The notes beneath the pieces were generated by a model, which searched no databases, was not told the DNA's origin, and saw only the letters and a program-made list of their open reading frames with translations. Positions 18,854-64,000 of a stretch of DNA of 64,000 bases are shown here, piece after piece (the stretch's first letter is position 1; each line of letters starts with the position of its first letter). Both the position numbers and the translations under genes were made by a program. Source of the DNA: Gemmatimonadales bacterium (GTDB taxonomy: Bacteria; Gemmatimonadota; Gemmatimonadetes; Gemmatimonadales; GWC2-71-9); NCBI GenBank assembly GCA_041613315.1, contig JBFJHJ010000010.1, positions 10,596 through 74,595 on the forward strand, in the 5' to 3' direction.

Positions 18854-18859
18854 TCTCAA
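18843..18859. promoter_or_regulatory. Fur box
   Basis: TTGATAAT-C-ATTCTCAA, a near-perfect 8-1-8 inverted repeat matching the tGATAATnATTATCa Fur consensus. AT-rich in a GC-rich background and overlaps the iron permease start codon. Confidence 0.85.
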
Positions 18860-47438: not shown

Positions 47439-49142
47439 ATGACCCCACTGACCGACCAGGAGCTGGTCGAGCGCTGGCGCGGCGAGCCCGCGCCGCTGCT
47501 CCCCCTGTTGCACGCCTTCCACGATCGGGACGGGTTTCTGTCCGAAGAGGCGATGCGGGCGGTGGCCCGGGGCCTCGACCTCCCGATCGCGGAACTCTAC
47601 GGGAACGTCACGTTCTACCATCATTTCGCGCGCCAACCAGCGCAGCGCGGGGCGGCGCGCGTTTGCACCGGTCCCATTTGCCGCCTGCTCGGTGGAGAGG
47701 CACTGCTCGAGGCGCTGGCCGGCGAAGGCGCGACCGCCATGCCGTGCGCCGGCCGGTGCGACGACCCGGTGCCGGTGCTCCGCGGCCCGACACTGCTCGT
47801 GGGCAGGACGGCCGACCAGCTCGCGTCCCGACCCTCGCCACTGCCACCGCGCAACCCGGGCGGCGTCGAAGAGTGCGTCTTCGCGGCGATTCGCGAGCCG
47901 GGGCGCGCGGGTCTCGAGGGATACCGGAAGAGCGGCGGGTACGAAGGACTGACGCGCGCCCTGACGACGATGCGACCGAGCGACGTGATCCAGCTCATCA
48001 CCGACAGCACGCTCGCGGGCCGGGGCGGTGCAGGGTTTCCGACCGGAACCAAATGGAAAGCGGTGGCCGACGCGTCCGGCCGGCCCAAGACGATTGTGTG
48101 CAACGCCGACGAAGGCGAGCCGGGCTGCTTCAAGGACCGCGCGATCCTCGATCACGACCCGCATGCGGTGCTCGAGGGCATGGTGCTGGCCGGCTACGCG
48201 ACGGGCGCGACCCGCGGATTCATCTACCTCCGCTACGAGTACCCTGAGACCGCCGACATCCTGGAGCGGGCGGTCGCCGAGGCGGGCCGGGCGGGCGTCC
48301 TCGGGGAGCGGGTGCTGGGCACCGACTTCGACTTTCGGATCTACGTGCGGCGCGGGGCCGGGGCATATATCTGCGGCGAGGAGGGATCGCTCCTCAACAG
48401 CCTGGAGGGCAAGCATCCGTTCCCGCGCAACCGGCCGCCGTTCCCCGTCACCCACGGGTACGAGGACCTGCCCACCGTCGTGAACAACGTCGAGACGCTC
48501 GCCTCGACGCCGCACATCCTCCGCCGCGGCGCCGCGTGGTACCGCGGTCTGGGCCTGAACGGCCACGCGGGCACGAAGGTCATCAGCCTCTCGGGCGACA
48601 TCCAGCGGCCCGGGAACTACGAGGTGCCCCTGGGGCTCCCGCTCCCGACGCTGCTCGGTGACTGGGCCGGTGGTCCGCCGCCGGGCCGGACCATCCAGGC
48701 CGTCACGATGGCCGGCCTGTCGGGGGGGTTCCTCGCCGGCGACGACCTGGACGTGACGCTGGACGAGGCCAGCATCCGCGCACGCGGGTCGTTCTTGGGC
48801 GCGGGGGGCATCATGGTGTTCGACGATTCACGGGACATGGTCGACGTGGCCCACGGCGCGATGGCGTTTTTCGCCCATGAGTCGTGCGGGAAGTGCTTCC
48901 CGTGCCGCATCGGCACGCAGCGGCTCACCGAGCGCCTGGCCGGCGCGGCCGGGCCCGCGGAGCTTACCGCGTGGCTCGACGAGGTGACCGACATCGGCAG
49001 GGTCATGAAGGCCATCAGCGCGTGCGGGCTCGGCACGGCGGCCCCTTTGATTACCGAGAGCCTGATGCGGTATTTTCCGGAGCGGCTCGCGGCGCACGTG
49101 CGCTCGCACGGAGCGCACCCCGACCAACAGGATCGTCCATGA
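47439..49142 (+). CDS. NuoE-NuoF fusion: diaphorase (gamma+beta) subunit of NAD-dependent formate dehydrogenase
   Basis: NuoE-like CTGPIC...CAGRC, NuoF GRGGAGFPTG.KW, NADEGEPG, YICGEE, NNVET, CGKCFPCRIG...C. ATGA overlap with the FDH alpha gene. Confidence 0.92.
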   Translation: MTPLTDQELVERWRGEPAPLLPLLHAFHDRDGFLSEEAMRAVARGLDLPIAELYGNVTFYHHFARQPAQRGAARVCTGPICRLLGGEALLEALAGEGATAMPCAGRCDDPVPVLRGPTLLVGRTADQLASRPSPLPPRNPGGVEECVFAAIREPGRAGLEGYRKSGGYEGLTRALTTMRPSDVIQLITDSTLAGRGGAGFPTGTKWKAVADASGRPKTIVCNADEGEPGCFKDRAILDHDPHAVLEGMVLAGYATGATRGFIYLRYEYPETADILERAVAEAGRAGVLGERVLGTDFDFRIYVRRGAGAYICGEEGSLLNSLEGKHPFPRNRPPFPVTHGYEDLPTVVNNVETLASTPHILRRGAAWYRGLGLNGHAGTKVISLSGDIQRPGNYEVPLGLPLPTLLGDWAGGPPPGRTIQAVTMAGLSGGFLAGDDLDVTLDEASIRARGSFLGAGGIMVFDDSRDMVDVAHGAMAFFAHESCGKCFPCRIGTQRLTERLAGAAGPAELTAWLDEVTDIGRVMKAISACGLGTAAPLITESLMRYFPERLAAHVRSHGAHPDQQDRP

Positions 49143-51889
49143 TCTCGACACAAACCGACGCGACGCAGCACGTGATGACGGTGGACGGCGAGGAGGTCGC
49201 TTTCACCGGGGGGGAGACCATCTACGCGGTGGCCTCACGGTGCGGGCGGACGATTCCGACGCTGTGCTACGACCCTCGACTCGAGCCGTTCGGGGGCTGC
49301 CGGCTCTGCGTGGTGGAGGTGGAGGGCGCCCGCGCGCCGGTTGCCTCATGCACGACGAAGGCGACGCCGGGCATGGTCGTACGGACGCAGACGGGCGCCA
49401 TCGAGGAGTTGCGCACGGTCCTGCTCGAGCTGGTGGCCTCCGAGAACCGCGCGCTCGACGTCGATCCGCTCCGGGGCTATGCCTCGCAGGAGCTCCGGAC
49501 GCTGGTTGACCGCTATGACGCGCGCACGGGCCGGTTCGCCGGCGCGCGTTCGGGAACGACCAGGCCTGATGACGACAATCCGTTCATTCTGCGCGACTAC
49601 GAGCTGTGTATCTCCTGCTATCGCTGCGTGCGGGTCTGCGCGGAGCAGGAAGGGGACTACGCGATCAGCGTGATGAACCGAGGCTTCCACACGCAGATCA
49701 CCACCGAGTTCAACGGACTCCTCAAGGACTCCGCCTGCACCTTCTGCGGGCAATGCGTGCAGACGTGTCCGACCGGGGCGCTGGCGGACCGGAAAGCGAT
49801 GCGGTTCGAAGACCACCCGGGCGCGATCGAGACGACACGCACGATCTGCCCTTACTGCGGCGTCGGTTGCTCGGTCGATGTGCTGACGAAGGACGGGACG
49901 CTCGTCGGCGTCCAGCCCGCCATGGACGGCCCGGCGAACCGCGGCGCGCTGTGCGTCAAGGGCCAGTTCGCCTACGACTTCGTGCAGCATCCTGAGCGTC
50001 TGGCCACGCCCCTCGTGCGCGGCGACGACGGCGTGCTCCACCCGACCGGCTGGGACGAGGCCCTGGACCGTGCCGCAGAGGGGTTCCGCCGGGCCGCCGC
50101 GGAGCACGGCCGGCACAGCATCTACGGCATCGCCTCCGGCCGTGCCCCGACCGAAGCAGCGTACACGATGCAGAAGTTCATCCGGGCCGGCTTCGGCACG
50201 AATCAGATCGACAACTGTAGCCGTGCCTGACACGCGCCCACGGTCGCCGGTCTGGTGGCCTCGATCGGACGCGGCGCCATGTCGAACCCCCTGGCCGACA
50301 TGGAAAAGCCCGATGTGATCTTCTGCATCGGGACCAACATGACGGAGTGTCACCCCGTGGCGGCGACCCGGATCAAGCGGGCGCTGCGCCGTGGGGCGAA
50401 GATGATCGTGGCTGATCCCCGACGGATCCCGCTCGCGGATCTCGCCGACCTCTATCTCCCCATCCGCGTCGGATCCGACGTGGCGCTCCTGCTGGGAATG
50501 GCCCACGTGATCGCGCGGGACGGCCTCGTGAACCCGGCGTTCATCGATGAGCGTACCACGGAAGCCGAGGCCTTCCTCGAGCATGTCAGGCAGTTCCCGC
50601 CGGAATGGGCGTCGTCGATCACCGGCGTGCCCGCACCGGATATCGAAACGGCCGCCCGCTGGTACGGGACCGCCGACCGCGGCGCGATCTACTACACGCT
50701 CGGCATCACCGAGCACATCTGCGGCGTGGACAACGTTCAAAGCCTGTGCAACCTGGCTCTCATGACGGGGAACGTGGGGCGCGAGGGAACCGGCATCAAC
50801 CCGATGCGGGGCCAGAACAACATCCAGGGTGCGGGAGATTCCGGAGCGTTGCCGAATAACTATCCCGGCTTCCAGGCGGTGACCGACCCCGCACACCAGG
50901 CCACGTTCCGCGAGCGCTACGGCCGCGAGATCGACGGCGAGAAGGGGATCACGAAGGTCACAGCCCTCGATCTCTGTGGAGAACAGATCCGCGCGATGCT
51001 GATCGACGGCGAGAACACCCTGCTCTCGGACCCAGACCGCTCGCACTGCGAGCATGCGCTCCGCAGCCTCGACCACCTGGTCGTCATCGACATCTTCCTC
51101 ACGGAGACCGCGCAGCTGGCCGACGTCGTGCTGCCGGCGACCGCGTGGGCCGAGACGGACGGTACGTGTACCAACACCGAGCGTCGCGTCCAGCGCCTTC
51201 ACGCCGCCGTGCCGCCGTTCGGGGAGGCCCGGCCCGACTGGTGGATCATCAGCCAGATCGCCCGGCGCCTGGGCATCCCGGGGTTCGACCTCACCTCGGC
51301 CGCCGACGTGTTCAATGAACTGTGCAGTGTCTCGGCCATCTACGCCGGCCTCGACTGGGATCGGATCGAGCACGGGGCCTACCACTGGCCCGTCCCCCAC
51401 CCCGGGCACCCGGGCACGCCGATTCTCCACCAGGGACGCTTCGAGAACGGCCGTGGCATCTTCCAGCTCATCAGTTACCGAGACCCGGCCGAGACGATCA
51501 GCGCGGACTATCCGGTGTGGCTCACGACCGGCCGCCGACTGGCCTCGTATCACACCCGCACGCAGACGGGCCGCGCGCAGGGCATCGACTACCTGCTGCC
51601 GGAGGAAGCGCTCGAGGTGCACCCGGACGATGTCGCGGCGTGGAAACTGGCGGACGGGGGATGGTGCCGCGTATCGAGCCCGCGCGGCTGCGTCGCGATC
51701 AAGGTGCGCGCCACGCGCCGCTCGCCGCGGGGCACGGTGTTCGCGAGCTTCAGCTTCGCCGATGTGCCCGTCAATGTCCTGACGGGGGCCGGCTACGACC
51801 CGGTCACCCAGACGGCGGAGCTCAAGGTGTGCCCCGTCCGGGTCGAGCCAGCAGCCATGCCACCGCGGGCCGGCACGGCGGGCGCGTGA
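49139..51889 (+). CDS. fdhF: Formate dehydrogenase alpha subunit (Mo/W-bisPGD), selenoprotein with Sec at UGA 50228-50230
   Basis: ORFs 48884..50230 and 50255..51889 are in the same frame, joined as IDNCSRA-U-HAPTVAGL..GRGAMSN, the catalytic Cys/Sec-His site. Also N-terminal 2Fe-2S, two 4Fe-4S (CISCYRC, CTFCGQC), CPYCGVGC, RGQNNIQGAGD, TNTERRVQ. Confidence 0.93.
50242..50260 (+). promoter_or_regulatory. Bacterial SECIS hairpin
   Basis: GGUCGCC-GGUCU-GGUGGCC stem-loop starting 11 nt after the UGA, with a G-led loop closely resembling the E. coli fdhF SECIS (GGUUGCA-GGUCU-GCACC). Confidence 0.85.
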
Positions 51890-51931
51890 GTCACCGCCCG
51901 GAGCGGACCGGACACCGGCGACGGAGAACGT

Positions 51932-52516
51932 CTACGCTCCGAAGTACGCCGGCTCGTTCCCCTTCTTCCATTTGATATTGCAGCCGATGCTGGGCTTCTG
52001 GTCTGCGGGGACCGGTGTGCCGGCCAACACCGCGTCCAGCGCCCGCCGGAGATCCTTGCCCGTCACGCGCACGCCGGTCTTCGGCCGGCTGTCGTCGAGT
52101 TGGCCGCGGTAGACGAGTGCCCGGTCGCCGTCGAACACATAGAAATCGGGCGTGCACGCGGCATGAAACGCCTGGGCGACCGCCTGAGTCTCGTCGTGGC
52201 AGAACGGGAATTGCCAGCCCTCCGCACGCACCAGCGCCTTCATGTTGGCCGGAGCGTCCTCCGGATAATTGGCGACGTCGTTCGAGTTGATCGCGACGAT
52301 GCCCACGCCCTTCGGCTGATAGTCCTTCGCCACCCGGCCCAACTCCGTCTTCACGTGCTTCACGAACGGGCAATGGTTGCAGATGAACATCACCAGGAGA
52401 GCCGCGCGGTCCGCAAAGTCCTCCGGTGAGACGGTCGTGCCCGTCACGACGTCCGTGAGCGAGAAGGCGGGCACGGTGGTGCCAAGAGGCAGCATGGTGG
52501 ACGCCGTCTGCACCAT
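51932..52516 (-). CDS. Thioredoxin-fold (AhpC/TSA-like) protein
   Basis: MFICNHCPFV, INSND, AACTPDF, YRGQLDDSRP, PSIGCNIKW. Confidence 0.92.
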   Translation of the reverse strand: MVQTASTMLPLGTTVPAFSLTDVVTGTTVSPEDFADRAALLVMFICNHCPFVKHVKTELGRVAKDYQPKGVGIVAINSNDVANYPEDAPANMKALVRAEGWQFPFCHDETQAVAQAFHAACTPDFYVFDGDRALVYRGQLDDSRPKTGVRVTGKDLRRALDAVLAGTPVPADQKPSIGCNIKWKKGNEPAYFGA

Positions 52517-52652
52517 GGGGACGCTCCTTTCGCGCGGGGGTCAGGGATGCGGCTCCATCCGCGTGTGCGGACAGGAAGGAATATACGCCGCCGCCGCTTC
52601 CGCCCGGAGCCCTCGCTTGACCCGCCGCCCGCTCCGCGGCCAGTATGCAGCC

Positions 52653-53465
52653 ATGGCGATCTCCTCCGATCGGCCCGACGCCAAACCCGATCCCCGCATG
52701 CGGCACGTCACGGTCGTGCGCCGCCGCGGCGGCGAGCGCGTCATCGACCACGTCGCGACCGAGGATCCGCTCGAGATCCGGTTGGGGGGGACCCCCCTTG
52801 CCGTGACCATGCGTACGCCGGGTGACGACGACGACCTGGTGTGCGGGTTTCTCCTGACCGAGGGGATTCTGCTCACCCCCGATGAGATCGCCCGCATCGA
52901 GCGACTCGACGACTCACGCGTGGCGGTGCACTTCGCGCCCGACGTCGCGGTCGATCCCGCGCGGTTCCAGCGCAACATGTTCGTCTCCAGCTCCTGCGGG
53001 ATCTGCGGCAAGGCCTCGATCGAGGCCGTCCAGCTCGTGGCGCGCCCCGCGGCCCCGTTCACGGTTTCGCGCGCCGTGCTTGGCGCGCTGACCGGCCGGC
53101 TCCGGGAGCGGCAGCCGACGTTCGACCAGACGGGCGGGCTCCATGCGGCGGGCGTCTTCGACCTCTCGGGCCGTGCCGTCGCCGTGCGGGAAGACGTGGG
53201 CCGCCACAACGCGGTGGACAAGGCCATCGGCGCCACCGCCAGAGCCGCCTGGCCCCTGCCACCGGCGCTCCTCGTCGTGTCCGGCCGCCAGAGCTTCGAG
53301 ATCGTGCAGAAGGCCGCGGTGGTCGGGATCGGCGGCGTCGTCGGCGTGTCCGCGCCGTCATCCCTCGCGGTCGAGCTCGCTCAGAGCCTCGACATGCTGC
53401 TCGTCGGATTCGCGCGGGGCACGGAGTTCAACGTGTACGCCGGCGACACACGCGTGGGACGCTAG
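52653..53465 (+). CDS. fdhD: Formate dehydrogenase accessory sulfurtransferase FdhD
   Basis: EDPLEI, TMRTPG, GFLLTEG, SSCGICG, TGGLHAAG, REDVGRHNAVDK, SAPSSLA. Confidence 0.96.
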   Translation: MAISSDRPDAKPDPRMRHVTVVRRRGGERVIDHVATEDPLEIRLGGTPLAVTMRTPGDDDDLVCGFLLTEGILLTPDEIARIERLDDSRVAVHFAPDVAVDPARFQRNMFVSSSCGICGKASIEAVQLVARPAAPFTVSRAVLGALTGRLRERQPTFDQTGGLHAAGVFDLSGRAVAVREDVGRHNAVDKAIGATARAAWPLPPALLVVSGRQSFEIVQKAAVVGIGGVVGVSAPSSLAVELAQSLDMLLVGFARGTEFNVYAGDTRVGR

Positions 53466-53497: not shown

Positions 53498-53677
53498 TCA
53501 GCGCGCGGTATCGCGCGCCATCACGGTGTCCCCGCGCGCACCCGTTCCCGGCGCGCCGATCGTATCGGCGACCGTGGAGCGGGACGGCGGCTCGTCGGAG
53601 CGCTCGCCGCCCCGCTCTTCGCCCCCACAGGCACCGACCAACACGACGACCAGCCCAACGTGCCACAGTGTGCGCAT
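53498..53677 (-). CDS. Small lipoprotein (59 aa)
   Basis: MRTLWHVGLVVVLVGAC lipobox, SD GGAGG, and its own TTGACG-16-TAGCTT promoter (53751-53724). Confidence 0.65.
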   Translation of the reverse strand: MRTLWHVGLVVVLVGACGGEERGGERSDEPPSRSTVADTIGAPGTGARGDTVMARDTAR

Positions 53678-53755
53678 CGTTACCCTCCGGCGAGATGCCA
53701 GGTCCGGGGTGATGGGCGGCCGCAAGCTAGCGCCCGCCGGGGAGGCGTCAAGCAC

Positions 53756-56116
53756 GTGAACCGACGGACGTTCGTGCACTCGATCGCCGCCGCAGCGTTC
53801 GCGCCGCCGGTGCTCGGCGACACCGTTGCCGCCCGAGGGTCAGCGCCTCGCGTGGACGCCGCCACCACGCTGTTCTACGCGCCGCCCGACGGCCGCGCGA
53901 GCTTGGTGCGCTTCCTCGCGCGCGAGGTCGACGCGCCGGCGGGACGGCTGCGCGTGTACGACGGCGCGCGGCGGCTCGTGGGGACGGCGGGGATGATCCG
54001 CCGCGGCGACGCGCTCTACGGCGAGCTCTGGCTCCAGGTGGGCGTCGGCCTGACCGTCGGGACCGAGCTGGAGGCACCCGGACTTCGCGGCGTGCTCCGC
54101 AATCAGCACCGCCTCCAGCCCCGCCGGCGGTGGACGATCCACTGGCTGACGGTGCTGGACCCGGCCGTCCTCACACAGACCCTGGAGGCCCTGCCGCAGC
54201 CGGGCCGCGGCGTGTTCGGCGCGACGCTCGCGAGCGCGGGCGTACGCGCCAACCCGCTCCCGCCGGGGCCTGCGCTCGGTGCCCTCGATCACCTGCCATT
54301 CCTCAGGATGGGACGCGCCGCCCAGCACGTACAGGAAGTACTCGGCGTCCCGGCGTCTGCGCTCGCCCTTGCCACGAGCCCGGGCGACTACCCGCCAACG
54401 ACGCCGATCGCCCTTGCCGGGGCGGGCACGCCTTACGCGGCGTTGCCCTGGCGGGAGGATCTCCCGTTCGCCTGGTGGCGCGGACCGGATGGCTCGCGTG
54501 TGCTCGCCATCGCCGTTCCACCCGGCGGCGACGCGAGCGCGCTAGGGTTCGCAGCAGGTCGCGCGGAGATGACGCGGCGGGTGGAGCAGTGGCTCATGAC
54601 CCTCCCACCCGGACTCGCACCGTCGTCCAACGGTCGGACCGCTGAAGCGGCGGACGCCCATGTGCTCGTCCTCGGCGCGCAGCTGCCCGAGGCCATCGCG
54701 CAGATGTACCAGGCAGTCCGGGAATGGAACAGCCGCTTCGCATATCCCCGGATCGTTGTGGGAATGGGCGACGCGCTGCTCACCGCCATCGAGCGCCGGG
54801 GTGGAGCCGCCGGGCCGCCGCTGGCCCCGATGCCACCCGCCGCATGGGAACCGCCCCAGGCCGATTTCTTCGCGGCCGCCCGCACCGCGCGCGACGCCGC
54901 GGCCGAAGACCGTGCGGCCGGCATCCTCGCTCCGTTCGTGGCGCTGCTCGGCCGCCCGGGCGCGCGCACCAGCACCGACTCGGCGCTCGACGCCGTGAGC
55001 CGGGAGATCGAAACCGAAGCCGGCGGGACGATCGTCTTCAACCCCTCGCCGTTTTCGCGGACCGATGTGGCCCGCTTTCCCGACAGCGCGGAGCGCGTGG
55101 TGACCGACGTCCCGGCGCTCGGTTACGTCTTCGTGCCAGACGCGATGTTCGGCAGAGAGGAGCGGGAGGAGCGGCACGAGCGACGGACCATCGCCGAGGG
55201 GGGCGGCTACCGCGTCAGGATCGACGAGGCGTCCGGCGCGATCGCGTCGTTTACGTCGGCGGAGGGGCGTGAGTGGGTGCGCCCGGAGAGCGACGGCCTG
55301 AACGCGCTCCCGGGGGCGATCCTCGAGGAGCTCACGCTCGTGCGGGTCGACGGGGTCGGCCAGCGCCTCGTGGCTCGGCGGTGGTCGCCGGAATACGGTG
55401 CGCTCAGGACGTCCATCACCGTGTACGACGCCTTGCCGTGGGTGGACCTCGAGAACAGCACCGACGAGACCGGTGGCGCACCGGTCCGCTACCGATTTCC
55501 ATTTGCACTCGACGCGCCGCGCGTCCGCTGGGAGATCCCGGCGGGCAGCGCGGAGAGCGCTGCCCCGGTCGCCCGCGCCGTACCCCTCCGCTGGCTCGCG
55601 CTCGACGGGCCCGGCGGGTCGGTCATGGTGAGCGGGCGCGACGCGCCCCACGCCGAGGTGACGACCGACGGTCTCCTCCTGGCCACCGCGGCGCCGGGGC
55701 GGGCGCGCTTCCGGCTGCGCACCGCGAATGAGCCGCCGCCGCCGGGCGACGTGGCGCGCCTCGGCTGGAGCACCGAAGCGTTCCGCACCGCGCGCGTCGC
55801 GCGCGGTCCGACCGGCCGTCTCCCCCGGTTCGGGTCGCTCGTGGTCGTGGACCAGCCGGGTGTTGCCCTGGTGGGCCTCAAATCCGCGGACGTGGGCGAT
55901 GGAGTCGTCGTGTATCTGCAGGAGCTGCTGGGGGCCGCACGCTTCGTATCGGTGGGCGCGGGGTTGTTGGGATTCGGGTCGGCGCGCGTCGTGGATCTCC
56001 TCGAGCGCGACGCCGGCCGTGACGCCATGCCGGTCACCGAAGGGGTGTTCGTCGAGATCCCGTCCAACGGGGTAGTGGCGCTCCGGCTCGATGACGTGCG
56101 CCTCCGCCTCACGTGA
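53756..56116 (+). CDS. Tat-exported glycoside hydrolase family 38-like protein lacking the catalytic metal motif
   Basis: NRRTFV Tat signal. GH38-like motifs FAWWRGPDGSRVL, VREWN.RFAYPRI, VFNP..F.RTDV, DVPALGY, LK.A..GDG.VVYLQE. WTIHWLTVLD sits where HSHxD is expected. Confidence 0.65.
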   Translation: MNRRTFVHSIAAAAFAPPVLGDTVAARGSAPRVDAATTLFYAPPDGRASLVRFLAREVDAPAGRLRVYDGARRLVGTAGMIRRGDALYGELWLQVGVGLTVGTELEAPGLRGVLRNQHRLQPRRRWTIHWLTVLDPAVLTQTLEALPQPGRGVFGATLASAGVRANPLPPGPALGALDHLPFLRMGRAAQHVQEVLGVPASALALATSPGDYPPTTPIALAGAGTPYAALPWREDLPFAWWRGPDGSRVLAIAVPPGGDASALGFAAGRAEMTRRVEQWLMTLPPGLAPSSNGRTAEAADAHVLVLGAQLPEAIAQMYQAVREWNSRFAYPRIVVGMGDALLTAIERRGGAAGPPLAPMPPAAWEPPQADFFAAARTARDAAAEDRAAGILAPFVALLGRPGARTSTDSALDAVSREIETEAGGTIVFNPSPFSRTDVARFPDSAERVVTDVPALGYVFVPDAMFGREEREERHERRTIAEGGGYRVRIDEASGAIASFTSAEGREWVRPESDGLNALPGAILEELTLVRVDGVGQRLVARRWSPEYGALRTSITVYDALPWVDLENSTDETGGAPVRYRFPFALDAPRVRWEIPAGSAESAAPVARAVPLRWLALDGPGGSVMVSGRDAPHAEVTTDGLLLATAAPGRARFRLRTANEPPPPGDVARLGWSTEAFRTARVARGPTGRLPRFGSLVVVDQPGVALVGLKSADVGDGVVVYLQELLGAARFVSVGAGLLGFGSARVVDLLERDAGRDAMPVTEGVFVEIPSNGVVALRLDDVRLRLT

Positions 56117-56134: not shown

Positions 56135-58294
56135 TCAGCGCCCGCCGAACGTCCTTCGTAACGCCAGACGAAACGCCACCCGCTCGGCAGGCGTGAGAAA
56201 CCGTTCCAATTCGCCGGTCCCGCGGTTCTCGTTATAAGCGCCGAAGACGGCCCGCCTGGCGTCGAGCACGTTCGTCACCACACCGGAGACGCGCCATCCG
56301 CGGCGTTCCCACGCGACGCGAACGTCCGCCGTCACATACGCGTCCAACGGCTCAATCTCGTTCGCTTCGTCACCACGGAGCCACTGCGTTCCGTTGTACC
56401 GCGCTTCGACCCCGCCCTCGAAGCCGGCGCGAAGCTCGACGGACGCGCCGCCCCGGACGACGTGTGCGGGGATCAGCGGGAGCCGCCGGCCGGCGACCAC
56501 GGTATTGGCACCAAAGAAGGGGCTCGCCGCGAAGTCGCCATCCGAGCGGGGGCTGAAGATCTCCGCCGCCGTCTGAAAGGTGGCGTTCGTGTACGCGTAG
56601 TTGGCGTAGAAGGCGTGCCGACCGCCGATCTGGGTCCGCGCGGACAACTCCAGGCCCTCGCGTCGCGTCCCGCCGATATTGGCGAAGAACCCCTCAAACA
56701 GCGCTGCGTCCGATGCGATGAAGAAGATGTCGTCCGCGACCTCGGTGCGGTGGAGCGCTGCCGTGAAGCTCGTGGCTCCGATCGTCCAGCGCGCGCCGGC
56801 CTCGTAGGTGGTGGCGACGACGGGATCGAGGGGAGGATCGTCGCCCAGCGCGAACGGCAGCGGGCACGCCGCCGTCTCGTCGGCGCAGGCGAGCTCCACC
56901 ACCGCGGGCGCGCGGAAGCTCTGCCCGATGGACGCGTATAGCACTGCGTCCGCGCCCAGCTCGAGGGACACACCACCCCGGGGGCTGAAACGCCGGAACG
57001 TGCTCGTCGTGTCAGCCGCCGGATCGAGGTTGTCCTCGAAGGGGACGCGGATGTGGTCGTAGCGAACCCCACCGGACACGATGAGCCGGCCGATGTGGAC
57101 GTCGGCGAGCGCGTACCCCGCGAGGTCCCAGCTGGGACTGTCGACGTCGGTGGTGAGCTGCCCTGAACCGGCCGCCTCTTCGAGCAGCCGGAGGTTCACG
57201 GCGTTGGCTGCCCCATCCACGCCGACGCGGAGGGCGACCACAGCACCGCCGACCGGCGCCGTCGCTCGCCAATCGAGATTCCCGCCGAGCGTCCGGGTGC
57301 GGCTGAACCCCCGCACGTCCGGGTCGGGCGCCTGGTTCACGTTGAAGCGTTCGGCGGCGTGCCGCCGGTGATACACCGTCAGCGAGCCCCGTCCTGGCCC
57401 CATCGGCGCGTAGCCAGCGACGCTGACCTGAACCAGGTCCAGATCCTCGAAGTCCCCGGCGGTGAAGTTCGCGCGCGGCGTCGTCCGAAAGAGACTCTCG
57501 GGCAGCGAGCCGGCCGTCTCGGCGACGGACCTGGCGCCGAACACCTGGAGCGTGAGCCCGCGCCGGGCACTCAGCCTCCCGAGGTTGACGAAGACGTTGT
57601 AGCGCTCGGTCCCGGTCGCGTCGCGCCAGCCATCAGCGCTTTCGTAACCGCCCCCGAGATAGTAGTCCCACCCCCGGGCGGCACCGGCGACCGACCCTTC
57701 CACGCCGTAGCCGGCGAACGAGCCGGCGGCGATCTCGACCTCCGCCTCCCACGGCCCGTCTCCGCGTCGAGTGATGAGGTTGATCGCGCCACCCAAGGAG
57801 TTGGCGCCCAGCAGAGATCCGGCGCCGCTCAAGAGCTCCACTCGCTTCACGTGTTCCAGGGGGAGGAGGTCGAAGTTCACCTGCGCCGCGTCCGCTTCGT
57901 TTTGACGGACGCCGTCGAGGAACACCGACACCCCCGGAGGAAGGCCGACCACCGGGCCCACGTGAAAGCCGCGTGTGCTGAGCGTGAGCTTATGCGGACT
58001 CCCGAGGTCATCGTGCAGGGAGATGCCGGCCAGCGCGGCGAGGGCGCCGGCCACGGTGCGGCGCTCCCACGCCTCGAGGTCGCGCTCGAGGAGCAGCGAC
58101 ACCCGGGCGGGAACACCGGAGCCGATCCTGGGTCCCGCCAGCGGCGCAATCGTCGCGACGACCTCGACGGGGGAGAGCCTGACGGCGGCGCTGTCTCCGG
58201 CGCGAGCGGTGTCGGGTGCCTGGCCCGCCGCCGGTGCCGCGACCGCACAGGCCGCAACGGCGGCCGCAGCCCACGCCGGCAGCTCACATCGCAT
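56135..58294 (-). CDS. TonB-dependent receptor (C-x5-C motif type)
   Basis: Signal peptide, TonB-box-like LSPVEVVA, plug region SVFLDGVRQNE...RVELLSG...GGAINLIT, ELACADETAACPLP..LGDDPPL, C-terminal NVLD...RRTF. Confidence 0.92.
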   Translation of the reverse strand: MRCELPAWAAAAVAACAVAAPAAGQAPDTARAGDSAAVRLSPVEVVATIAPLAGPRIGSGVPARVSLLLERDLEAWERRTVAGALAALAGISLHDDLGSPHKLTLSTRGFHVGPVVGLPPGVSVFLDGVRQNEADAAQVNFDLLPLEHVKRVELLSGAGSLLGANSLGGAINLITRRGDGPWEAEVEIAAGSFAGYGVEGSVAGAARGWDYYLGGGYESADGWRDATGTERYNVFVNLGRLSARRGLTLQVFGARSVAETAGSLPESLFRTTPRANFTAGDFEDLDLVQVSVAGYAPMGPGRGSLTVYHRRHAAERFNVNQAPDPDVRGFSRTRTLGGNLDWRATAPVGGAVVALRVGVDGAANAVNLRLLEEAAGSGQLTTDVDSPSWDLAGYALADVHIGRLIVSGGVRYDHIRVPFEDNLDPAADTTSTFRRFSPRGGVSLELGADAVLYASIGQSFRAPAVVELACADETAACPLPFALGDDPPLDPVVATTYEAGARWTIGATSFTAALHRTEVADDIFFIASDAALFEGFFANIGGTRREGLELSARTQIGGRHAFYANYAYTNATFQTAAEIFSPRSDGDFAASPFFGANTVVAGRRLPLIPAHVVRGGASVELRAGFEGGVEARYNGTQWLRGDEANEIEPLDAYVTADVRVAWERRGWRVSGVVTNVLDARRAVFGAYNENRGTGELERFLTPAERVAFRLALRRTFGGR

Positions 58295-58361
58295 CGGCCG
58301 AGCTGCCGCCGATCCCGGCGACGCTAGGCTGGACGCCCCGTTCACGATAGGCACCAGCGCA

Positions 58362-58389
58362 CGGCGGGCCGGCTCGCGCCGGCCCGCCG
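58362..58389. terminator. Perfect 12-bp hairpin after the 58416-59015 gene
   Basis: CGGCGGGCCGGC-TCGC-GCCGGCCCGCCG, with no U-tract. Confidence 0.45.
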
Positions 58390-58415
58390 GTTGTCGCGTC
58401 GTCGTCCGCAGGGGC

Positions 58416-59015
58416 TCAGCGGGCGACCTTCCAGGGCGCGAGCGGCAAGGAAAGACCGTAGAGGAGCACTGAGCGGTCACCGAAATCGACGCCATCGGGC
58501 AGCCCGGTGAGCACGTAGGCGTACAGGGCGTACAGGCTCAGATTGGCCAGCTGACCGCGCGCGTTCGCGAGCGAGCCGATCTTCAGGAAGAAATCGGCCT
58601 CGAACAGGAACTTGTGGGTGTAGTCGCTGTTGCCGGTCGCGGCCGGACCGTAGCTGAACAGTGCATCGAAGTCGAGCGCCGCCGCCTTGGTGTTGAAAAT
58701 GTTCACGATCGGCCCATAGACGAACGACGGCGAGTTCGCCTTGCCCCCTGCCGCGTTGTCGGCAAACGGGAGCCACTGAATGATCCCGACGATCACGGTC
58801 CGCGGAATCTCGAGGGGCAGGACCGTTACGAATCGGATGTTGAAGTCGGTGTTCGTCGACGTCCCAGGGTCCTTGTCAATGAAGTTCGTCGTGATGAAGC
58901 CCGGCTGCATGACGAACACCGGGTTCAAGAACCCCTTGGTCTCCTCCTCCTGCGCGACTGCCGATGCAGCCAGACACAGCACCGCACCGCAGACCAGCGA
59001 AGTGACGCGTTTCAT
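58416..59015 (-). CDS. Hypothetical exported protein, probable small outer-membrane beta-barrel
   Basis: SD AGGAGG, signal peptide (ASAVA-Q), alternating aromatic/hydrophobic strands (FNIRFVT, LDFDALFSY, FLFEADFFL, LSLYALYAY, LLYGLSL). Confidence 0.75.
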   Translation of the reverse strand: MKRVTSLVCGAVLCLAASAVAQEEETKGFLNPVFVMQPGFITTNFIDKDPGTSTNTDFNIRFVTVLPLEIPRTVIVGIIQWLPFADNAAGGKANSPSFVYGPIVNIFNTKAAALDFDALFSYGPAATGNSDYTHKFLFEADFFLKIGSLANARGQLANLSLYALYAYVLTGLPDGVDFGDRSVLLYGLSLPLAPWKVAR

Positions 59016-59071
59016 CGCTCACTCCTCCTGAAAGGGTGCCTCAGTTAGACGGCCACGCGACCTATCGATCA

Positions 59072-59470
59072 CTACTGCCTCGCCTTAATCCGCTGGTTGA
59101 TCTCCCGTAACGTAAAGAGCATCCGGGTGTTGGTGTGCGTCTCCCACCAGTAGTGGTCGTCGAGTTGCGACGCGTAAACCCAGGCGCCGTAGGCGAACCG
59201 GAGCCCGCCCCAGCGAACGAGCGAGTCCAACGCGGCGCCGAGTGCCACGGTGTCCGCGGTCCCGGCGGCACGCTCGGCGTCGGCCAATCCGCTCCCGGCG
59301 AGAAAGCCCTGGAGATACGCGAGCTTCTGGTCGGGGTTGTACTGCGCCCACGTGATGCCGCTCGCCACGTTCCAGCGCTCTGCATCGCTCTGCGACGACG
59401 CAGCCGTGACGACCGTGGCGGCGGCTCCCACGAGCACGCCTGCCGTTACGAGCCCAAGGGTTCGGTTCAT
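59072..59470 (-). CDS. Hypothetical exported helical protein (132 aa)
   Basis: SD AGGAG, signal peptide, W......QKLAYLQGFLAG...YASQLDDHY. ATGA overlap with the sulfocyanin gene stop. Confidence 0.75.
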   Translation of the reverse strand: MNRTLGLVTAGVLVGAAATVVTAASSQSDAERWNVASGITWAQYNPDQKLAYLQGFLAGSGLADAERAAGTADTVALGAALDSLVRWGGLRFAYGAWVYASQLDDHYWWETHTNTRMLFTLREINQRIKARQ

Positions 59471-60030
59471 GGGCGCGATTCTCCTTTGGACCTGTGCTTC
59501 ATGGCGGGCTCGGCGCCCTCGACGACGTCGAGGCCGATCCACATGCCCGCCACCCCGTGCCCCGGAACGGCGCAGAAGATCATGAACGTGCCGGCGCGGT
59601 CCGCCCGGAAGCGGATGACGTCCGTCTGTCCGGCAGCCAACCCCTGGGCGAGCTTCGTGGAGTACGCCCGCTGGAACGCCGACTCCACCGGTCCCGGAGG
59701 GATCGGCCGGACGTCGTCGATGATCTGCGCGCTGTGGGGCAACACACCGTCCCGGTTGCTGAACGGCATGACGACCCGCCATCCCAGGGGCACGATCACG
59801 GTCAGCTCGCCGTCGGCGAACCCGTTGAAGTTCAGCGCCCCGTTCACACCGTTGTAGCCGGCGATCACGTCAAACGTGACCTGCCGGGCAGCGGCGTCGG
59901 AGATCAACCAGCCCGGGTCGATCTCGGTCGTGCGACCGGATCCCTGGGCGCGGGCGGCGCCCGCCCACAGCAGGGCGATGACGACCGTCCGGCCGATCCG
60001 ACGCAGTCGTTGAAGCTCCATCCGTTGCAT
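59467..60030 (-). CDS. Sulfocyanin (SoxE)-like type-1 blue copper protein
   Basis: SD GAGGAG, signal peptide, LNFNG...G..TVIVPLGWRV, LPHS (His ligand), C-terminal CAVPGHGVAGMW (Cys, His and Met ligands). Confidence 0.88.
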   Translation of the reverse strand: MQRMELQRLRRIGRTVVIALLWAGAARAQGSGRTTEIDPGWLISDAAARQVTFDVIAGYNGVNGALNFNGFADGELTVIVPLGWRVVMPFSNRDGVLPHSAQIIDDVRPIPPGPVESAFQRAYSTKLAQGLAAGQTDVIRFRADRAGTFMIFCAVPGHGVAGMWIGLDVVEGAEPAMKHRSKGESRP

Positions 60031-60108
60031 CACTCCTCGCCTGCGTCGGGGCGCACCGCGCGTCCGCAGGCGTACGCCACCCCCGTATCCGGGGCGAAAG
60101 GGGGACTG

Positions 60109-60156
60109 AAAAAAATGCGTCGGGGGGGCGGCCCGCCAAGCCGCTCCCCCCAGCGC
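60109..60156 (-). terminator. Intrinsic terminator after the PQQ dehydrogenase gene
   Basis: Minus-strand GC stem (GGGGGGAGCGGC...GCCGCCCCCCC) followed by a T7 tract, just after the stop at 60168. Confidence 0.8.
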
Positions 60157-60167
60157 CGAACTCCTGC

Positions 60168-61862
60168 TTACATGCCGCTCTTCGGCAGGCCGAAGACGAA
60201 GACCGTGCTGCCCAGCGGGTAGTTCAGCTGGAAGTTTCCGCCGGCCGCGATGGCGATCATCTGCTCGCCGTCGAGCGAGAACGACATCGGCGCGGCGTTC
60301 GCGCCGGCGCCGCACTGGAACTGCCACAACACCCGACCCGTCCTGGCGTCGTACGCCTTGAACAGCCCGTTGCCCTCGCCGGTGAAGACGAGGCCGCCGG
60401 CCGTGGCCAGTGCGCCCCCCATCATCGGCTGCTCGGTCTTGGCCTGCCAGGTGATCTTGCCGGTGCGGATGTTGATGGCCGTGAAGGTGCCCCACTGCTC
60501 CTCACCGGGGATCGCCACGAAGGCGCTCCCGAGCCAGAGCCGGCCCTTCTCCCACGGGGCGTAGTGCGTCTTGTAGTGCATCGGCTGGTGCAGGCCGAGC
60601 ACGTAGACGTTGTCCGTCTGCGGGGAGTAGGCGATGGGCGACCACTCCGCGCCACCGTTCGCGCCCGGCAGCATCCGCGTGCCTTCGGGCGTCGGCTGGG
60701 CGTACATGTTCTCCTGTGGGACGAACGCCTCGGAGTGCCGGATCAGTCTCCCGGTCTCGGCATCGATGACGTACACCCAACCGGTCTTCCCCGCGTGGAC
60801 CACGACTTTCCGGTTGCCGTCGCGCGCGATGATCGGGGGGCTCGCGGCGTCGAGGTCCCACACGTCATGGGGCAGGTACTGTAGCCCCCACTTCATCCGG
60901 CCGTTGGCCGCGTCTATGGCGACGATCGACTCCGTCCACAGGTTGTCACCGGGCCGAATGGTGCCGTCGAGATCCGGCGACGGGTTGCCGATCCCCATGT
61001 ACAGGGTCTTCGTGTCGGGGTCGTACGCCGGCGTCATCCACATGGAACCGCCGCCCCGCTGCCACGCGTCCGCATGCCTGGCGGAGTCGGCTTTCTCCTT
61101 GGCGATGTTCCGGTTGAGGCTTCGGCCGGTCGCGTCGGTCGTCGCCCACTTGCCCCACCAGCCGCCCTCCGCCGGCGAGGGAATCGTGTGCCAGCGCCAC
61201 GCACGCTGTCCGGTACGAGCATCGTAGGCCGTCACGTTGCCCCGGATGCCGTATTCCGCTCCGGAGGTCCCGACGATCACCTTGTCCTCCGCGAGCAGCG
61301 GGGCCAGGGTGAGGCTGTATCCGCCCGCCGGGTCGTTGTCCTCGACTTCCCACTTGACCTCGCCGGTCTTGGCGTCGAGCGCCACCACGCGGGCGTCCAG
61401 GGTAGCCATGTACACCATACCGTGCCCGATCGCGACGCCCCGGTTGTTCGGGCCGCAGCAGAAGATCGTGGTGCCAAGCTTGTGCTCGTAGCGCCACACT
61501 TCCTTACCCTTCCGCAGATCGTAGGCGAACACCACGTTGTACGGCGTGGTGATGTACATCATGCCGTCGGCCACGATCGGCGTGTTCTCGAAGCTCCCCA
61601 ACCGCTCGATGTTGGTCTGAATGACCATGCGGGGCACGAGCCGCGCGACATTCTGCGAGCTGATCTGGTTGAGCGTCGAGTAGCGCTGGTTGGCGTAGTT
61701 CCCGCCGTACATCAACCAGTCGCCCGGCGCCGGATTCTGCAGCATCTCCGGTGTGACCATAACGTTGGGCACGCGCTCCCCACCGTTGGTCTGCGCGATG
61801 GCCAGAGACGGCAACGCCACCATCAGCGCCGTGATGGAACACCATCGGCCTAGCGCTTTCAT
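60168..61862 (-). CDS. Periplasmic PQQ-dependent alcohol dehydrogenase-family protein, candidate lanthanide-binding
   Basis: SD GAGGAGG, signal peptide, WLMYGG.Y..QRYS.L.QI, vicinal CCGPNNRG, GAEYG, GNPSP, GDNL, HDVWDLD, W-docking repeats (TG..W). No CxxCH heme domain. Confidence 0.93.
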   Translation of the reverse strand: MKALGRWCSITALMVALPSLAIAQTNGGERVPNVMVTPEMLQNPAPGDWLMYGGNYANQRYSTLNQISSQNVARLVPRMVIQTNIERLGSFENTPIVADGMMYITTPYNVVFAYDLRKGKEVWRYEHKLGTTIFCCGPNNRGVAIGHGMVYMATLDARVVALDAKTGEVKWEVEDNDPAGGYSLTLAPLLAEDKVIVGTSGAEYGIRGNVTAYDARTGQRAWRWHTIPSPAEGGWWGKWATTDATGRSLNRNIAKEKADSARHADAWQRGGGSMWMTPAYDPDTKTLYMGIGNPSPDLDGTIRPGDNLWTESIVAIDAANGRMKWGLQYLPHDVWDLDAASPPIIARDGNRKVVVHAGKTGWVYVIDAETGRLIRHSEAFVPQENMYAQPTPEGTRMLPGANGGAEWSPIAYSPQTDNVYVLGLHQPMHYKTHYAPWEKGRLWLGSAFVAIPGEEQWGTFTAINIRTGKITWQAKTEQPMMGGALATAGGLVFTGEGNGLFKAYDARTGRVLWQFQCGAGANAAPMSFSLDGEQMIAIAAGGNFQLNYPLGSTVFVFGLPKSGM

Positions 61863-61965
61863 AAAACCCCTCCTCAATGAGAATCTCCGAATCGATCGCA
61901 CCTCAGAACCATCCACTCCCGTGATTGTCCGATGCAGATTAGGACCACGCGCACAAACCGCCCCA

Positions 61966-64000
61966 CTAGGGGGCGGCGCCAACGGACAGGCCGACATAGG
62001 CGTTCCGCGGCGGTGCCGGCTCATAGTAGCGGCCGCCCCGCGCATTGACCACGACGGACCCGACGTACGTGCTGTCAAACACGTTCTGCACTCCGACGAA
62101 CGGCGCGACGCGCCACCCGGCGATCACCCCCTGCCACCCCACCCGGAGGGCCGTTACCGCCCAGGAGTCGTTGCGCCCGGTATTCTCATCATCTACGTAA
62201 TATCCCGCGCTCCACGTGTTGTCCAGGGCGGCCCAAATGCCCACCGCGGCGCTGTACCGGAGCGAGATATGCGCGTAGTGCCGCGGCACCCCCGGGATCT
62301 CGTTGCCGTCGAGCGTGTCGGCGTCGGTCTGGTACCGGCGAAACCGATGATCGGCATAGGTATACGCCGTCACCACCTGGACACCGGGCACCGGCCGGAC
62401 CCGCAGCTCCAGCTCGGCGCCGCTGTGCCGGGCGAGGCCGGCATTGCGGAAGAACCGGCGGTTCGGAGCGCCCGGGACCTCGAACGGCACGAGCAGGTCG
62501 CGTACGTCCGAATAGAACGCTGCCGCGCTGTACGTCACGTCATCACCCACGCGGCCCCGCAGGCCGACCTCGTAATTCACGGCGCGCTGCGGATCGAGCT
62601 CGGGATTGAACCCGCCGGCTCCCTCGGGCCGGTTGGCGAGCTCCGTCGTGGTCGGTGTCTCGAACGACGTGCCGACGCTGGCGTACGGCCGGATCGTGGG
62701 CGCCGCCTCGTAGCTCACGCCCGCCGTGGCGGAGAGCGCCGACATCACGCGCCGGCCGGAGTCATCGCTGCCGTCGTCGAGAAACCGGTCCTCGGCGCGG
62801 AACCCGACCCGATCGTAGCGCACGCCGAGCGTCACGTCCATCCGCGGCGCGAGGTCGAGCACGACCTCGCCGAACGGGCCGATCTCGAACACGCGCTCGA
62901 ACTGGCTCAGCGTCAGTGCCGAGCGCGTCGGCGTGAAGTTCATGCGGTCGTCGCGCTGCCATTGCGCATCGAAGCCCAGCGTGACGACGTGGCGCGCTCG
63001 ACCGCGGACCAGCGGAACGGTCGCGGTCGCCCGGGAGCCATAGGCCCACCGATCCAGCGAGATGTACGCGAAGGCGAGCGGGTTCTCGAGATCCCGCCGG
63101 AGCCCGAAGAGCGTTGCCGACAGCCGGGCGTCTCCGCCAAAGCGATGGTCCACGCTCACGGCCACCTGCGCCTGCGTCACGGCCTTGCCCGCGTCCGCCG
63201 TCACGTTCCGCGGATCGGCGGCCGCCGGACTCGTGTCCGCCTCGACCCGGGTGAGCGCACCCGGGTTGTCCAGCGTCGGCTGGTCCGCGACGTGCGCGGC
63301 GACGGTGAGCGTCGTCCGCGGCCCCACCGGCTGCCGCAGCCTGGCCTCCGCCCGGCGCGTGTCCGCCTCGCTGTGGTCGCGGAAGCCGTCGGTGGTCGTG
63401 CGAGACGTGGTCACCGAGACGCGCCCACCCCCCAGCGGCACGGCGGCGCCCGCGACCCACTTGCGGAACCCGTACGCGCCCGCCGTCACGCGCGCGGTCG
63501 GGGCGAGCCGCGTGATGGGAGACTGGTCGGTCCATATGCTCACCACACCGCCCGACGCATTGCCGTACAGCGTCGACGAGGAGCTGCGCAAGATCTCGAT
63601 CCGCCCGACGTCGGCGACCTCGACGTTCGTGAGCTGGCCCTGCCCGTCCGGCAACGTCTGCGGCACACCATCCAACAGGACCTTGATGCCCCGTACACCG
63701 AACGCCGAGCGGGCGCCGAACCCGCGGATCGAGAGCCGCTGATCGAGTGAGTAGTTGTAGCGATTGGCCACCATGACACCGGCGAACGCGGCGAGTGCCT
63801 CGTCGAGCCCATCCGTCAGGCGGCCGAGCTGTATCTCATCGCGGTCCACCACGGACACGGCGTACGGCACCCGCGCCAGCTCGCGCTCCGTACGCGTCAC
63901 GGTCACAGTGACCGGCGCGAGCGTGATCACACGCGCGGAGTCCGCGCGCACGGAGTCGCGCGACGCCGCCTGCGGCACCGCGACGGCCGGGAACACGGCC
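61966..64000 (-). CDS. TonB-dependent receptor, YncD/PqqU-like (5' end beyond the window edge)
   Basis: SIRGFGARSAFGVRGIKVLLDGVPQTLPDGQGQ, LYGNASGGV, SFETPTTTEL and YVGSVVVN...YYEPAP.RN match recalled YncD-family motifs. Confidence 0.88.
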   Translation of the reverse strand, partial: AVFPAVAVPQAASRDSVRADSARVITLAPVTVTVTRTERELARVPYAVSVVDRDEIQLGRLTDGLDEALAAFAGVMVANRYNYSLDQRLSIRGFGARSAFGVRGIKVLLDGVPQTLPDGQGQLTNVEVADVGRIEILRSSSSTLYGNASGGVVSIWTDQSPITRLAPTARVTAGAYGFRKWVAGAAVPLGGGRVSVTTSRTTTDGFRDHSEADTRRAEARLRQPVGPRTTLTVAAHVADQPTLDNPGALTRVEADTSPAAADPRNVTADAGKAVTQAQVAVSVDHRFGGDARLSATLFGLRRDLENPLAFAYISLDRWAYGSRATATVPLVRGRARHVVTLGFDAQWQRDDRMNFTPTRSALTLSQFERVFEIGPFGEVVLDLAPRMDVTLGVRYDRVGFRAEDRFLDDGSDDSGRRVMSALSATAGVSYEAAPTIRPYASVGTSFETPTTTELANRPEGAGGFNPELDPQRAVNYEVGLRGRVGDDVTYSAAAFYSDVRDLLVPFEVPGAPNRRFFRNAGLARHSGAELELRVRPVPGVQVVTAYTYADHRFRRYQTDADTLDGNEIPGVPRHYAHISLRYSAAVGIWAALDNTWSAGYYVDDENTGRNDSWAVTALRVGWQGVIAGWRVAPFVGVQNVFDSTYVGSVVVNARGGRYYEPAPPRNAYVGLSVGAAP

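Follow-up and report, generated by a model that had tools for sequence, protein, structure and literature searches.

To which protein does a pyrroloquinoline quinone (PQQ) dehydrogenase deliver its electrons when the gene beside it encodes a blue-copper protein in place of a cytochrome c? Characterised type-I PQQ dehydrogenases use c-type cytochromes. The question is raised by a locus at the end of a 64,000-nucleotide stretch of DNA (the window) from a Gemmatimonadales bacterium (assembly GCA_041613315.1, contig JBFJHJ010000010.1), where six co-oriented minus-strand genes encode, in order, a TonB-dependent receptor (TBDR1), a PQQ dehydrogenase, a sulfocyanin-like cupredoxin, two proteins named here Orf132 and Orf199, and a second receptor (TBDR2). 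An earlier note on this DNA had read the six as a candidate module that provisions itself with cofactors. All six genes were found as described (Table 1), with gaps of 103, 137, −4, 56 and 121 nucleotides in that order. We propose, at a probability of about 0.6, a periplasmic oxidation unit in which a lanthanide-type PQQ dehydrogenase would pass electrons to blue copper, accompanied by receptors for PQQ and lanthanide. The earlier interpretation was partly supported: our survey of gene neighbourhoods revealed that the six-gene set is not conserved and that only the dehydrogenase and the cupredoxin are kept together. This pair is the conserved unit, around which the supply genes have been gathered in the window's lineage, and the arrangement of six is special to that lineage.

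The dehydrogenase and the cupredoxin

The dehydrogenase passed the cut-off of the type-I model TIGR03075 (490.4 bits against 480.05). Alignment with PedH (6zcv) placed the vicinal disulfide C135-C136, E203, W275, N293, the catalytic D336 and D338 in register. D338, two residues after the catalytic Asp, coincides with the lanthanide Asp of PedH, a position held by Ser in the calcium-type ExaA (1flg), and an extra Asp at this place is the published criterion for lanthanide dependence (PMC5487730). The lanthanide-type metal site claimed earlier was supported in this way, and there is good reason to expect that the enzyme depends on a lanthanide. Both the D-x-D motif and the Cys-Cys pair were retained in 120 of 120 homologues among the matches listed. 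No CxxCH motif occurs anywhere in the protein, and the C-terminal cytochrome c domain that characterises type-II alcohol dehydrogenases (ADHs) is absent. Scores against solved enzymes were 286 bits for PedH, 279 for ExaA and 277 for XoxF, the whole set including the type-II enzymes lying between 264 and 286 bits, with about one third identity to any of them. Since it is about equally distant from PedH, ExaA, XoxF and the type-II enzymes, it belongs to an uncharacterised clade and its substrate cannot be named. Relatives on proteobacterial plasmids were 52–56% identical, and two of the three inspected have a c-type cytochrome gene next to them.

The enzyme resembles PedH/ExaF, which work with cytochrome c550 PedF or ExaG, in its eight-blade PQQ propeller, its vicinal disulfide, its Glu/Asn/Asp set with the extra Asp, its soluble periplasmic nature and its adjoining acceptor gene; it differs in standing in a separate clade and in having a cupredoxin where they have cytochrome c. 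No gene of MxaJ (MoxJ) type was found either, in agreement with the earlier note, which had reported none of the MxaJ/XoxJ type in the cluster or window. Lanthanide-type PQQ enzymes of Gemmatimonadota are also encoded in the 'xoxF3' clusters of Acidobacteria and Gemmatimonadetes (PMC10875860), where cox and ctaG genes lie nearby; in this they resemble the sister clade described below. Unlike the present locus, those clusters contain the cytochrome c XoxG and often XoxJ, and no cupredoxin acceptor appears in the available part of that paper. Unlike the xoxF3 enzymes, that of the window is no closer to XoxF than to PedH.

Other PQQ enzymes were seen along the way. The same genome encodes two further glucose-dehydrogenase-type enzymes (C36:9691-11511 and C13:4615-6516, read from translations), both with D-x-D, and the one on C13 has an adjoining cytochrome c gene; both would also need imported PQQ. 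Loci L081-L085 and L087 encode PQQ dehydrogenases of 1155–1210 amino acids with an N-terminal membrane domain of about 600 residues that by eye is glycosyl- or mannosyltransferase-like.

The cupredoxin matched PF06525 (33.5 bits, cut-off 21) and remained under the cut-off of TIGR03094, the model for sulfocyanin proper (46.7 against 168.4 bits). All four type-1 copper ligands are present as a His followed by Cys-x4-His-x4-Met (H99, C153, H158 and M163), and the H-C-H-M set recurs in 31 of 40 aligned relatives. With sulfocyanin SoxE of Sulfolobus and with rusticyanin the protein shares the PF06525 match, the C-x4-H-x4-M loop and the upstream His. It differs from them in its TIGR03094 score, in being bacterial and secreted, and in its genetic setting, which is that of a quinoprotein gene instead of a SoxM oxidase gene or a rus operon. 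A second sulfocyanin-like paralogue, found at C1:97.8-98.4 kb of the genome and upstream of the enzyme in loci L026-L037, has Glu for the axial Met; it is usually divergent from the enzyme and stands beside a major facilitator superfamily transporter and a redoxin. The H-C-H-E set was present in seven of the 40 aligned cupredoxins, and two have no Cys. At L196:4577-6519, L197 and L201, in genomes without the enzyme, a sulfocyanin-like gene lies behind one for an outer-membrane CxxCH protein that we take to carry the Cyc2 motif; Pfam gave no match for it.

Cytochrome c and copper in the acceptor slot

To place the pair in an evolutionary frame, 94 loci around relatives of the dehydrogenase were mapped and a FastTree phylogeny of Gemmatimonadota relatives, with 115 rows, was built (two duplicate loci and short fragments omitted, root on a Novosphingobium PedE-type enzyme). 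The tree contains two sister groups, each with support 0.999. In one of them 49 of 50 rows have a cytochrome c gene next to the enzyme, often together with a second cytochrome and cox genes. The window falls in the other, the copper clade, which has 51 rows, or 46 genome-derived rows once five database proteins found through their fusion are set aside. Among these 46 the cupredoxin is the next gene in 22 and fused to the enzyme in 8; 6 have only the upstream paralogue, 7 another gene and 3 a contig end. A cytochrome c gene was next to the enzyme in none. In two of the seven with another gene, the enzyme is immediately followed by a CoxII-type cupredoxin and CoxI; at L113:9845-10390 and in L038 the order is copper-clade enzyme, CoxII-like CuA protein, CoxI-like protein and CtaG, again with no cytochrome c next. 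The deep-branching enzyme of locus L041 likewise has a cupredoxin next to it.

The fused PQQ-cupredoxin proteins are single reading frames of 724–765 amino acids with a complete H-C-H-M set, in which the SoxE domain occupies residues 615–747 and no haem motif separates the two domains. Six further PQQ-plus-SoxE proteins came from a protein database, among seven matches. One of the six, the partial sequence P0242, falls within the subclade to which the window belongs, a sign that fusion happened more than once. When 301 genomes of the phylum were searched with a fused protein, in a run that had no positive control, none matched at E 1e-220, and such fusions look rare. We then turned to an even sample of 251 genomes of the family, 62 with the enzyme and 189 without it. 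A cupredoxin was present in 61 of the 62 carriers, as the next gene in 43 and within 3.5 kb in 52. The copper acceptor proposed in the earlier note gained support from the clade-wide exchange with cytochrome c, from the fusions and from this co-occurrence, and the cupredoxin is probably the first electron acceptor of the dehydrogenase.

One known parallel is that of the type-II quinohaemoprotein ADHs (1kb0, 1kv9 and 1yiq) with azurin, in which PQQ electrons also end on blue copper and whose two-domain layout is the same as that of the fused relatives. They differ in that no haem c domain lies between PQQ and copper here and the fused domain is a cupredoxin. A quinone or blue copper has only been hypothesised as the acceptor in marine Thaumarchaeota without cytochrome c (PMC7300363). 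In a literature search on sulfocyanin or cupredoxin together with PQQ, outside which subscription papers lay, no paper showing or naming the pair was found, and a term search of the available part of PMC11996626 returned nothing on copper; PMC6315138 proved unrelated. A predicted complex of enzyme and cupredoxin scored 0.05 (mark 0.32); this gave no answer and was not used as evidence. Another non-haem protein occupies the acceptor slot on a Variovorax plasmid (L223:4019-9062), where a PQQ dehydrogenase is followed by a high-potential iron-sulfur protein and then by a TBDR2-like receptor.

In the mechanism that we envisage, the dehydrogenase likely oxidises an alcohol or aldehyde in the periplasm, and electrons would travel from PQQ through the Cys135-Cys136 disulfide to the type-1 copper instead of to a cytochrome c. 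The copper could in turn reduce the CuA centre of a haem-copper oxidase (aa3, caa3 or ba3-like) or of nitrous-oxide reductase; translations of the genome contain caa3- and aa3-type oxidases on C13, and a ba3-like oxidase and NosZ on C5. TBDR1 would likely bring in PQQ and TBDR2 a lanthanide or lanthanide chelate, the substrate would enter through the small barrel Orf199, and Orf132 may be an accessory protein.

The two receptors

The best solved matches of TBDR1 were PqqU/YncD (9c4o and 6v81, E 1e-86). Its F99, R301 and R351 align with Y99, R304 and R365 of PqqU, giving the published Y/F/W99-R304-R365 signature (PMC12124388). Q121, K274 and R536 of PqqU were matched as well, and the F, R, R combination occurred in all 36 aligned relatives. 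Unlike E. coli PqqU, with which it shares 31.5% identity, TBDR1 has Leu for Q84, is encoded directly before a quinoprotein, and stays under the NCBIfam equivalog cut-off (NF041535, its best-scoring model, 355.6 bits against 1200). PqqU is reported to be common in Gemmatimonadetes, with 183 genomes (PMC12124388). Import of PQQ by one receptor, as claimed earlier, is very probable for TBDR1. A search of the whole genome, which is 82.9% complete, found no match to pqqC and only weak pqqB- and pqqE-like matches, none over the cut-off. The same pqqC search matched 74 of the 251 family genomes, 72 of them over the cut-off. The four closest enzyme carriers (83–95% complete) gave no pqqC match either, which makes PQQ scavenging likely in the window's lineage. 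A PqqD-domain match on C14 and radical-SAM matches were considered as a pqq operon and rejected, being single and weak or unlinked. A TBDR1-type receptor lies directly upstream in 10 of the 31 close loci that have enough upstream DNA. An adjacent PqqU was at first taken to signal that PQQ synthesis had been lost; the first 16 carriers fitted this idea and the larger sample did not.

TBDR2 also had YncD/PqqU (6v81/9c4o) as its best solved matches (E 3e-19), with the Y99 and R365 positions of the PQQ signature unmatched. PqqU as top PDB hit without the PQQ residues is the pattern described for lanthanide receptors, including those of Gemmatimonadetes (bioRxiv 10.64898/2026.07.10.737718), and TBDR2 shares it with LutH/LanA and the 'TBDT-Ln' set of that preprint. 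An EL-x-C-x6-C-x-LP motif was found in 120 of 120 homologues and in all five aligned plasmid receptors, to which TBDR2 is 27–32% identical. In a quick tree it grouped with receptors that stand beside lanM and pqq genes (SH-like approximate likelihood ratio test 90), among them, at the same 27–32% identity, a receptor of Methylobacterium nodulans whose gene adjoins a lanmodulin-like one. From 25 plasmid matches eight were inspected, and four of these lie, respectively, after pqqBCDE, before a gene for a lanmodulin-like protein with four EF-hands, in a ped cluster and after a PQQ dehydrogenase. LutH likewise adjoins lanM (PMC6850437), and LanM has been noted on an M. nodulans plasmid (PMC12482762). 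Unlike LutH and LanA, TBDR2 is not accompanied by lanM or lut ABC genes, and its likeness to them runs through the plasmid receptors. In the family sample TBDR2 was present in 56 genomes, 46 with the enzyme and 53 with pqqC; these are 56 of the 87 genomes that have the enzyme or pqqC, compared with 0 of the 164 that have neither. Taken with the missing PQQ residues, these associations tip the balance slightly towards a lanthanide substrate.

The genes flanking TBDR2 in the window include no pqq, lanM or lut ABC gene, and none recurs next to its 29 relatives. In 22 of these 29 (L157-L181, for example L158:318-1438) the genes immediately before the receptor encode an extracytoplasmic function (ECF) sigma factor and a protein resembling an anti-sigma factor, which contains Cys-Cys and D-x-D-G-G-G-D-x-x-D-D-G loops. 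The latter has no Pfam match, was not found in the window's genome, and is a candidate periplasmic metal sensor.

Several observations weigh against the proposed transfer from PQQ straight to copper. Ten of the 62 carriers have no cupredoxin within 3.5 kb of the enzyme, some of them at contig ends; the sampled genomes are kin, so the counts are not independent trials, and the exchange of cytochrome for copper may have been a single event. The genome moreover encodes many c-type cytochromes, and a monohaem protein at C5:25093 is 40% identical over 116 amino acids to the partner of the sister-clade enzymes. The dehydrogenase might reduce such a cytochrome encoded elsewhere, with the cupredoxin as a second carrier; the characterised methylotroph PQQ-ADHs all pair with cytochrome cL (PMC7391723), and in type-II enzymes azurin takes up the electrons once they have passed the haem (PMC8348568). 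We regard this as unlikely, given that the C5 gene belongs to a nosZ cluster, that cytochrome c is never the neighbour in the copper clade, and that the fusions carry copper C-terminally, where type-II enzymes have their haem domain. The sulfocyanin-like protein could instead be a general carrier or, in line with the assumption built into annotation pipelines, an iron-oxidation protein that lies beside the dehydrogenase for co-regulation only, and Gemmatimonadota sulfocyanin has been read as a putative iron oxidase (PMC11316326, PMC10367259). Homologues occur in 26 of the 189 genomes without the enzyme. In 3 of 20 inspected loci the preceding gene encodes a Cyc2-like CxxCH protein, and in five genomes the cupredoxin comes immediately after PqqU, no dehydrogenase intervening; four of these five carry another TIGR03075 enzyme (33% identical) elsewhere. 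The cupredoxin is therefore able to serve other donors. A cytochrome c domain also lies in the window, as part of an FTR1-type iron permease, so that the earlier statement that no cytochrome c is present stood for the cluster and not for the window; at 37 kb away this domain is unlikely to be the partner of the dehydrogenase. The near-constant presence of the cupredoxin in carriers, mostly as the next gene, its fusion to the enzyme at eight genome loci and the exact sister-clade swap with cytochrome c make a role unrelated to the enzyme improbable. Least probable is a propeller with quinone as its electron acceptor, or one that is no alcohol dehydrogenase: low identity to solved enzymes and a match to the acido-empty-quinoprotein model TIGR04528 (356.8 bits, cut-off 650) would fit it, set against a soluble protein with a signal peptide, the vicinal disulfide and all metal ligands kept, and a TIGR03075 score over the cut-off.

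The supply side of the proposed unit meets objections of its own. Self-provisioning failed as a general rule, since 49 of the 62 enzyme carriers have pqqC; so do 9 of the 15 genomes in which PqqU adjoins the enzyme, and PqqU-like receptors occur in 188 of the 251 genomes, mostly without the enzyme. Co-occurrence held for dehydrogenase and cupredoxin and not for all six families together: TBDR2 adjoins the enzyme in none of the 94 loci (many of them incomplete), and no other gene of the cluster was found beside the 29 TBDR2-receptor loci. It is quite conceivable, if somewhat less so than lanthanide import, that enzyme, cupredoxin and PqqU work as proposed while TBDR2, joined to them in the window's lineage only, imports iron, copper or another chelate. 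The usual neighbours of its relatives are electron-transfer flavoprotein (ETF) genes and the ECF sigma/anti-sigma pair, the surroundings of four of the eight inspected plasmid relatives show no link to PQQ or lanthanides, an Ideonella relative lies near MbnP-type copper genes, and identity to the plasmid receptors is low. What speaks for a lanthanide is the absence of TBDR2 from every genome with neither enzyme nor pqqC and its grouping with lanM- and pqq-adjoining receptors. In addition, an 83%-identical enzyme and a 70%-identical TBDR2 are both on 6766-bp contigs, and a second such pair was found, an indirect hint that a close relative has its genes arranged likewise.

Collectively, the locus represents a variant of lanthanide-type quinoprotein systems that is both real and widespread, with blue copper likely standing in for cytochrome c; the enzyme clade is common, with 62 of 251 family genomes. 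More tentatively, and at somewhat less than even odds, the Gemmatimonadota may hold a haem-free branch of lanthanide quinoproteins that pass electrons from PQQ straight to copper and include natural fused 'quino-cuproproteins' combining PQQ, a lanthanide and blue copper on a single chain, with the window's lineage making neither cofactor and keeping importers for PQQ and lanthanide in one operon. If so, most Gemmatimonadota 'sulfocyanin' matches counted as iron oxidation would mark lanthanide-dependent organic oxidation, casting doubt on sulfocyanin as an iron-oxidation marker in this phylum. The two-protein pair and the single-chain fusions offer direct objects for a test and could find use in direct-electron-transfer electrodes, and TBDR2 represents a candidate lanthanide receptor family beyond Proteobacteria whose presence in genomes is sharply tied to PQQ metabolism.

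Small proteins and surroundings of the cluster

Table 1. Features of the window, with the basis of each assignment
Feature	Position	Strand	Basis
TBDR1, predicted PqqU-type TonB-dependent PQQ importer, 5′ end cut by contig end	61966->64000	-	PqqU signature
Type-I PQQ dehydrogenase of 564 aa without haem domain; metal site of lanthanide type	60168-61862	-	TIGR03075
GC-rich hairpin then U7 run, in the dehydrogenase–cupredoxin gap; perhaps a partial terminator (weak)	60109..60151	-	fold of 60085-60170
Sulfocyanin-like periplasmic cupredoxin, 187 aa	59467-60030	-	PF06525
Orf132, 132 aa, secreted, predicted mainly helical (lower confidence), no known family	59072-59470	-	AF2 pLDDT 69
Orf199, 199 aa, 8-stranded outer-membrane beta-barrel (OmpA/OmpW-like fold)	58416-59015	-	AF2 pLDDT 92.5
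TBDR2, 719 aa, TonB-dependent receptor, candidate of the lanthanide-uptake (LutH/LanA-like) kind	56135-58294	-	sequence comparison
FTR1-type iron permease with cytochrome c domain	16838-18859	-	domain match

The Orf132 gene overlaps the stop codon of the cupredoxin gene by 4 nucleotides and, of the 33 close loci, 16 have it after the enzyme or the cupredoxin. A fold comparison returned no match with Z above 4.2. A Rap1a identity came up as an Atlas lead at 0.88 only. Orf132 was also considered as the small lanthanide cargo protein described in the 2026 bioRxiv preprint; this was unsupported because Orf132 goes with the enzyme and not with TBDR2. The model of Orf199 is a closed eight-stranded barrel that matched OprF, OmpA and OmpW at Z 10.8–11.9 (OprF barrel Z 11.9, root-mean-square deviation 3.1, 125 aligned residues), which is a shared fold and not a family assignment. 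Among its 189 relatives, P0283 (708 amino acids) has a barrel of this family fused to the C-terminus of a PQQ-type propeller, and distant members flank sister-clade enzymes. In the 33 close loci the slot is filled by a porin-like protein of about 400 amino acids in 19 and by Orf199 in 2; no kinship between the two was detectable (probability 6.5).

The window is the final 64 kb of contig C10 in a genome of 2.63 Mb and about 70% GC. Because the contig stops at the window's end, TBDR1 is without its first codons and the DNA upstream cannot be read here. In relatives with the same receptor upstream, signal peptidase I or DUF4331/tetratricopeptide repeat genes precede it and no cytochrome does; a CxxCH protein upstream in close relatives was rejected as a cytochrome and proved to be a redoxin. 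Signal peptides of the cluster proteins were assigned by eye. The GC content at third codon positions of the cluster is 0.85–0.91, a purine-rich ribosome-binding site precedes four of the five internal starts, and a sequence scan found no sigma-70-type promoter. The hairpin between dehydrogenase and cupredoxin had a z-score of −0.45 and was absent from the terminator-scan list. Five public DNA runs from two studies, all marine metagenomes, contain the cluster stretch, with no RNA run listed among them. Coverage on the metagenome contigs was even, and single contigs span the TBDR1–dehydrogenase, dehydrogenase–cupredoxin–Orf132 and Orf132–Orf199 junctions; the best-matching runs are perhaps the source sample.

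The gene beyond TBDR2 is convergent on it (53660-56116, plus strand) and encodes an 818-amino-acid protein with a twin-arginine-like start, which had no Pfam or NCBIfam match and did not turn up next to the enzyme's relatives. NAD-linked formate dehydrogenase-like genes with fdhD lie at 47439-53465, some 3 kb away from the cluster, the large subunit being split over adjacent open reading frames (48884-50230 and 50255-51889); these genes could be compatible with C1 oxidation.

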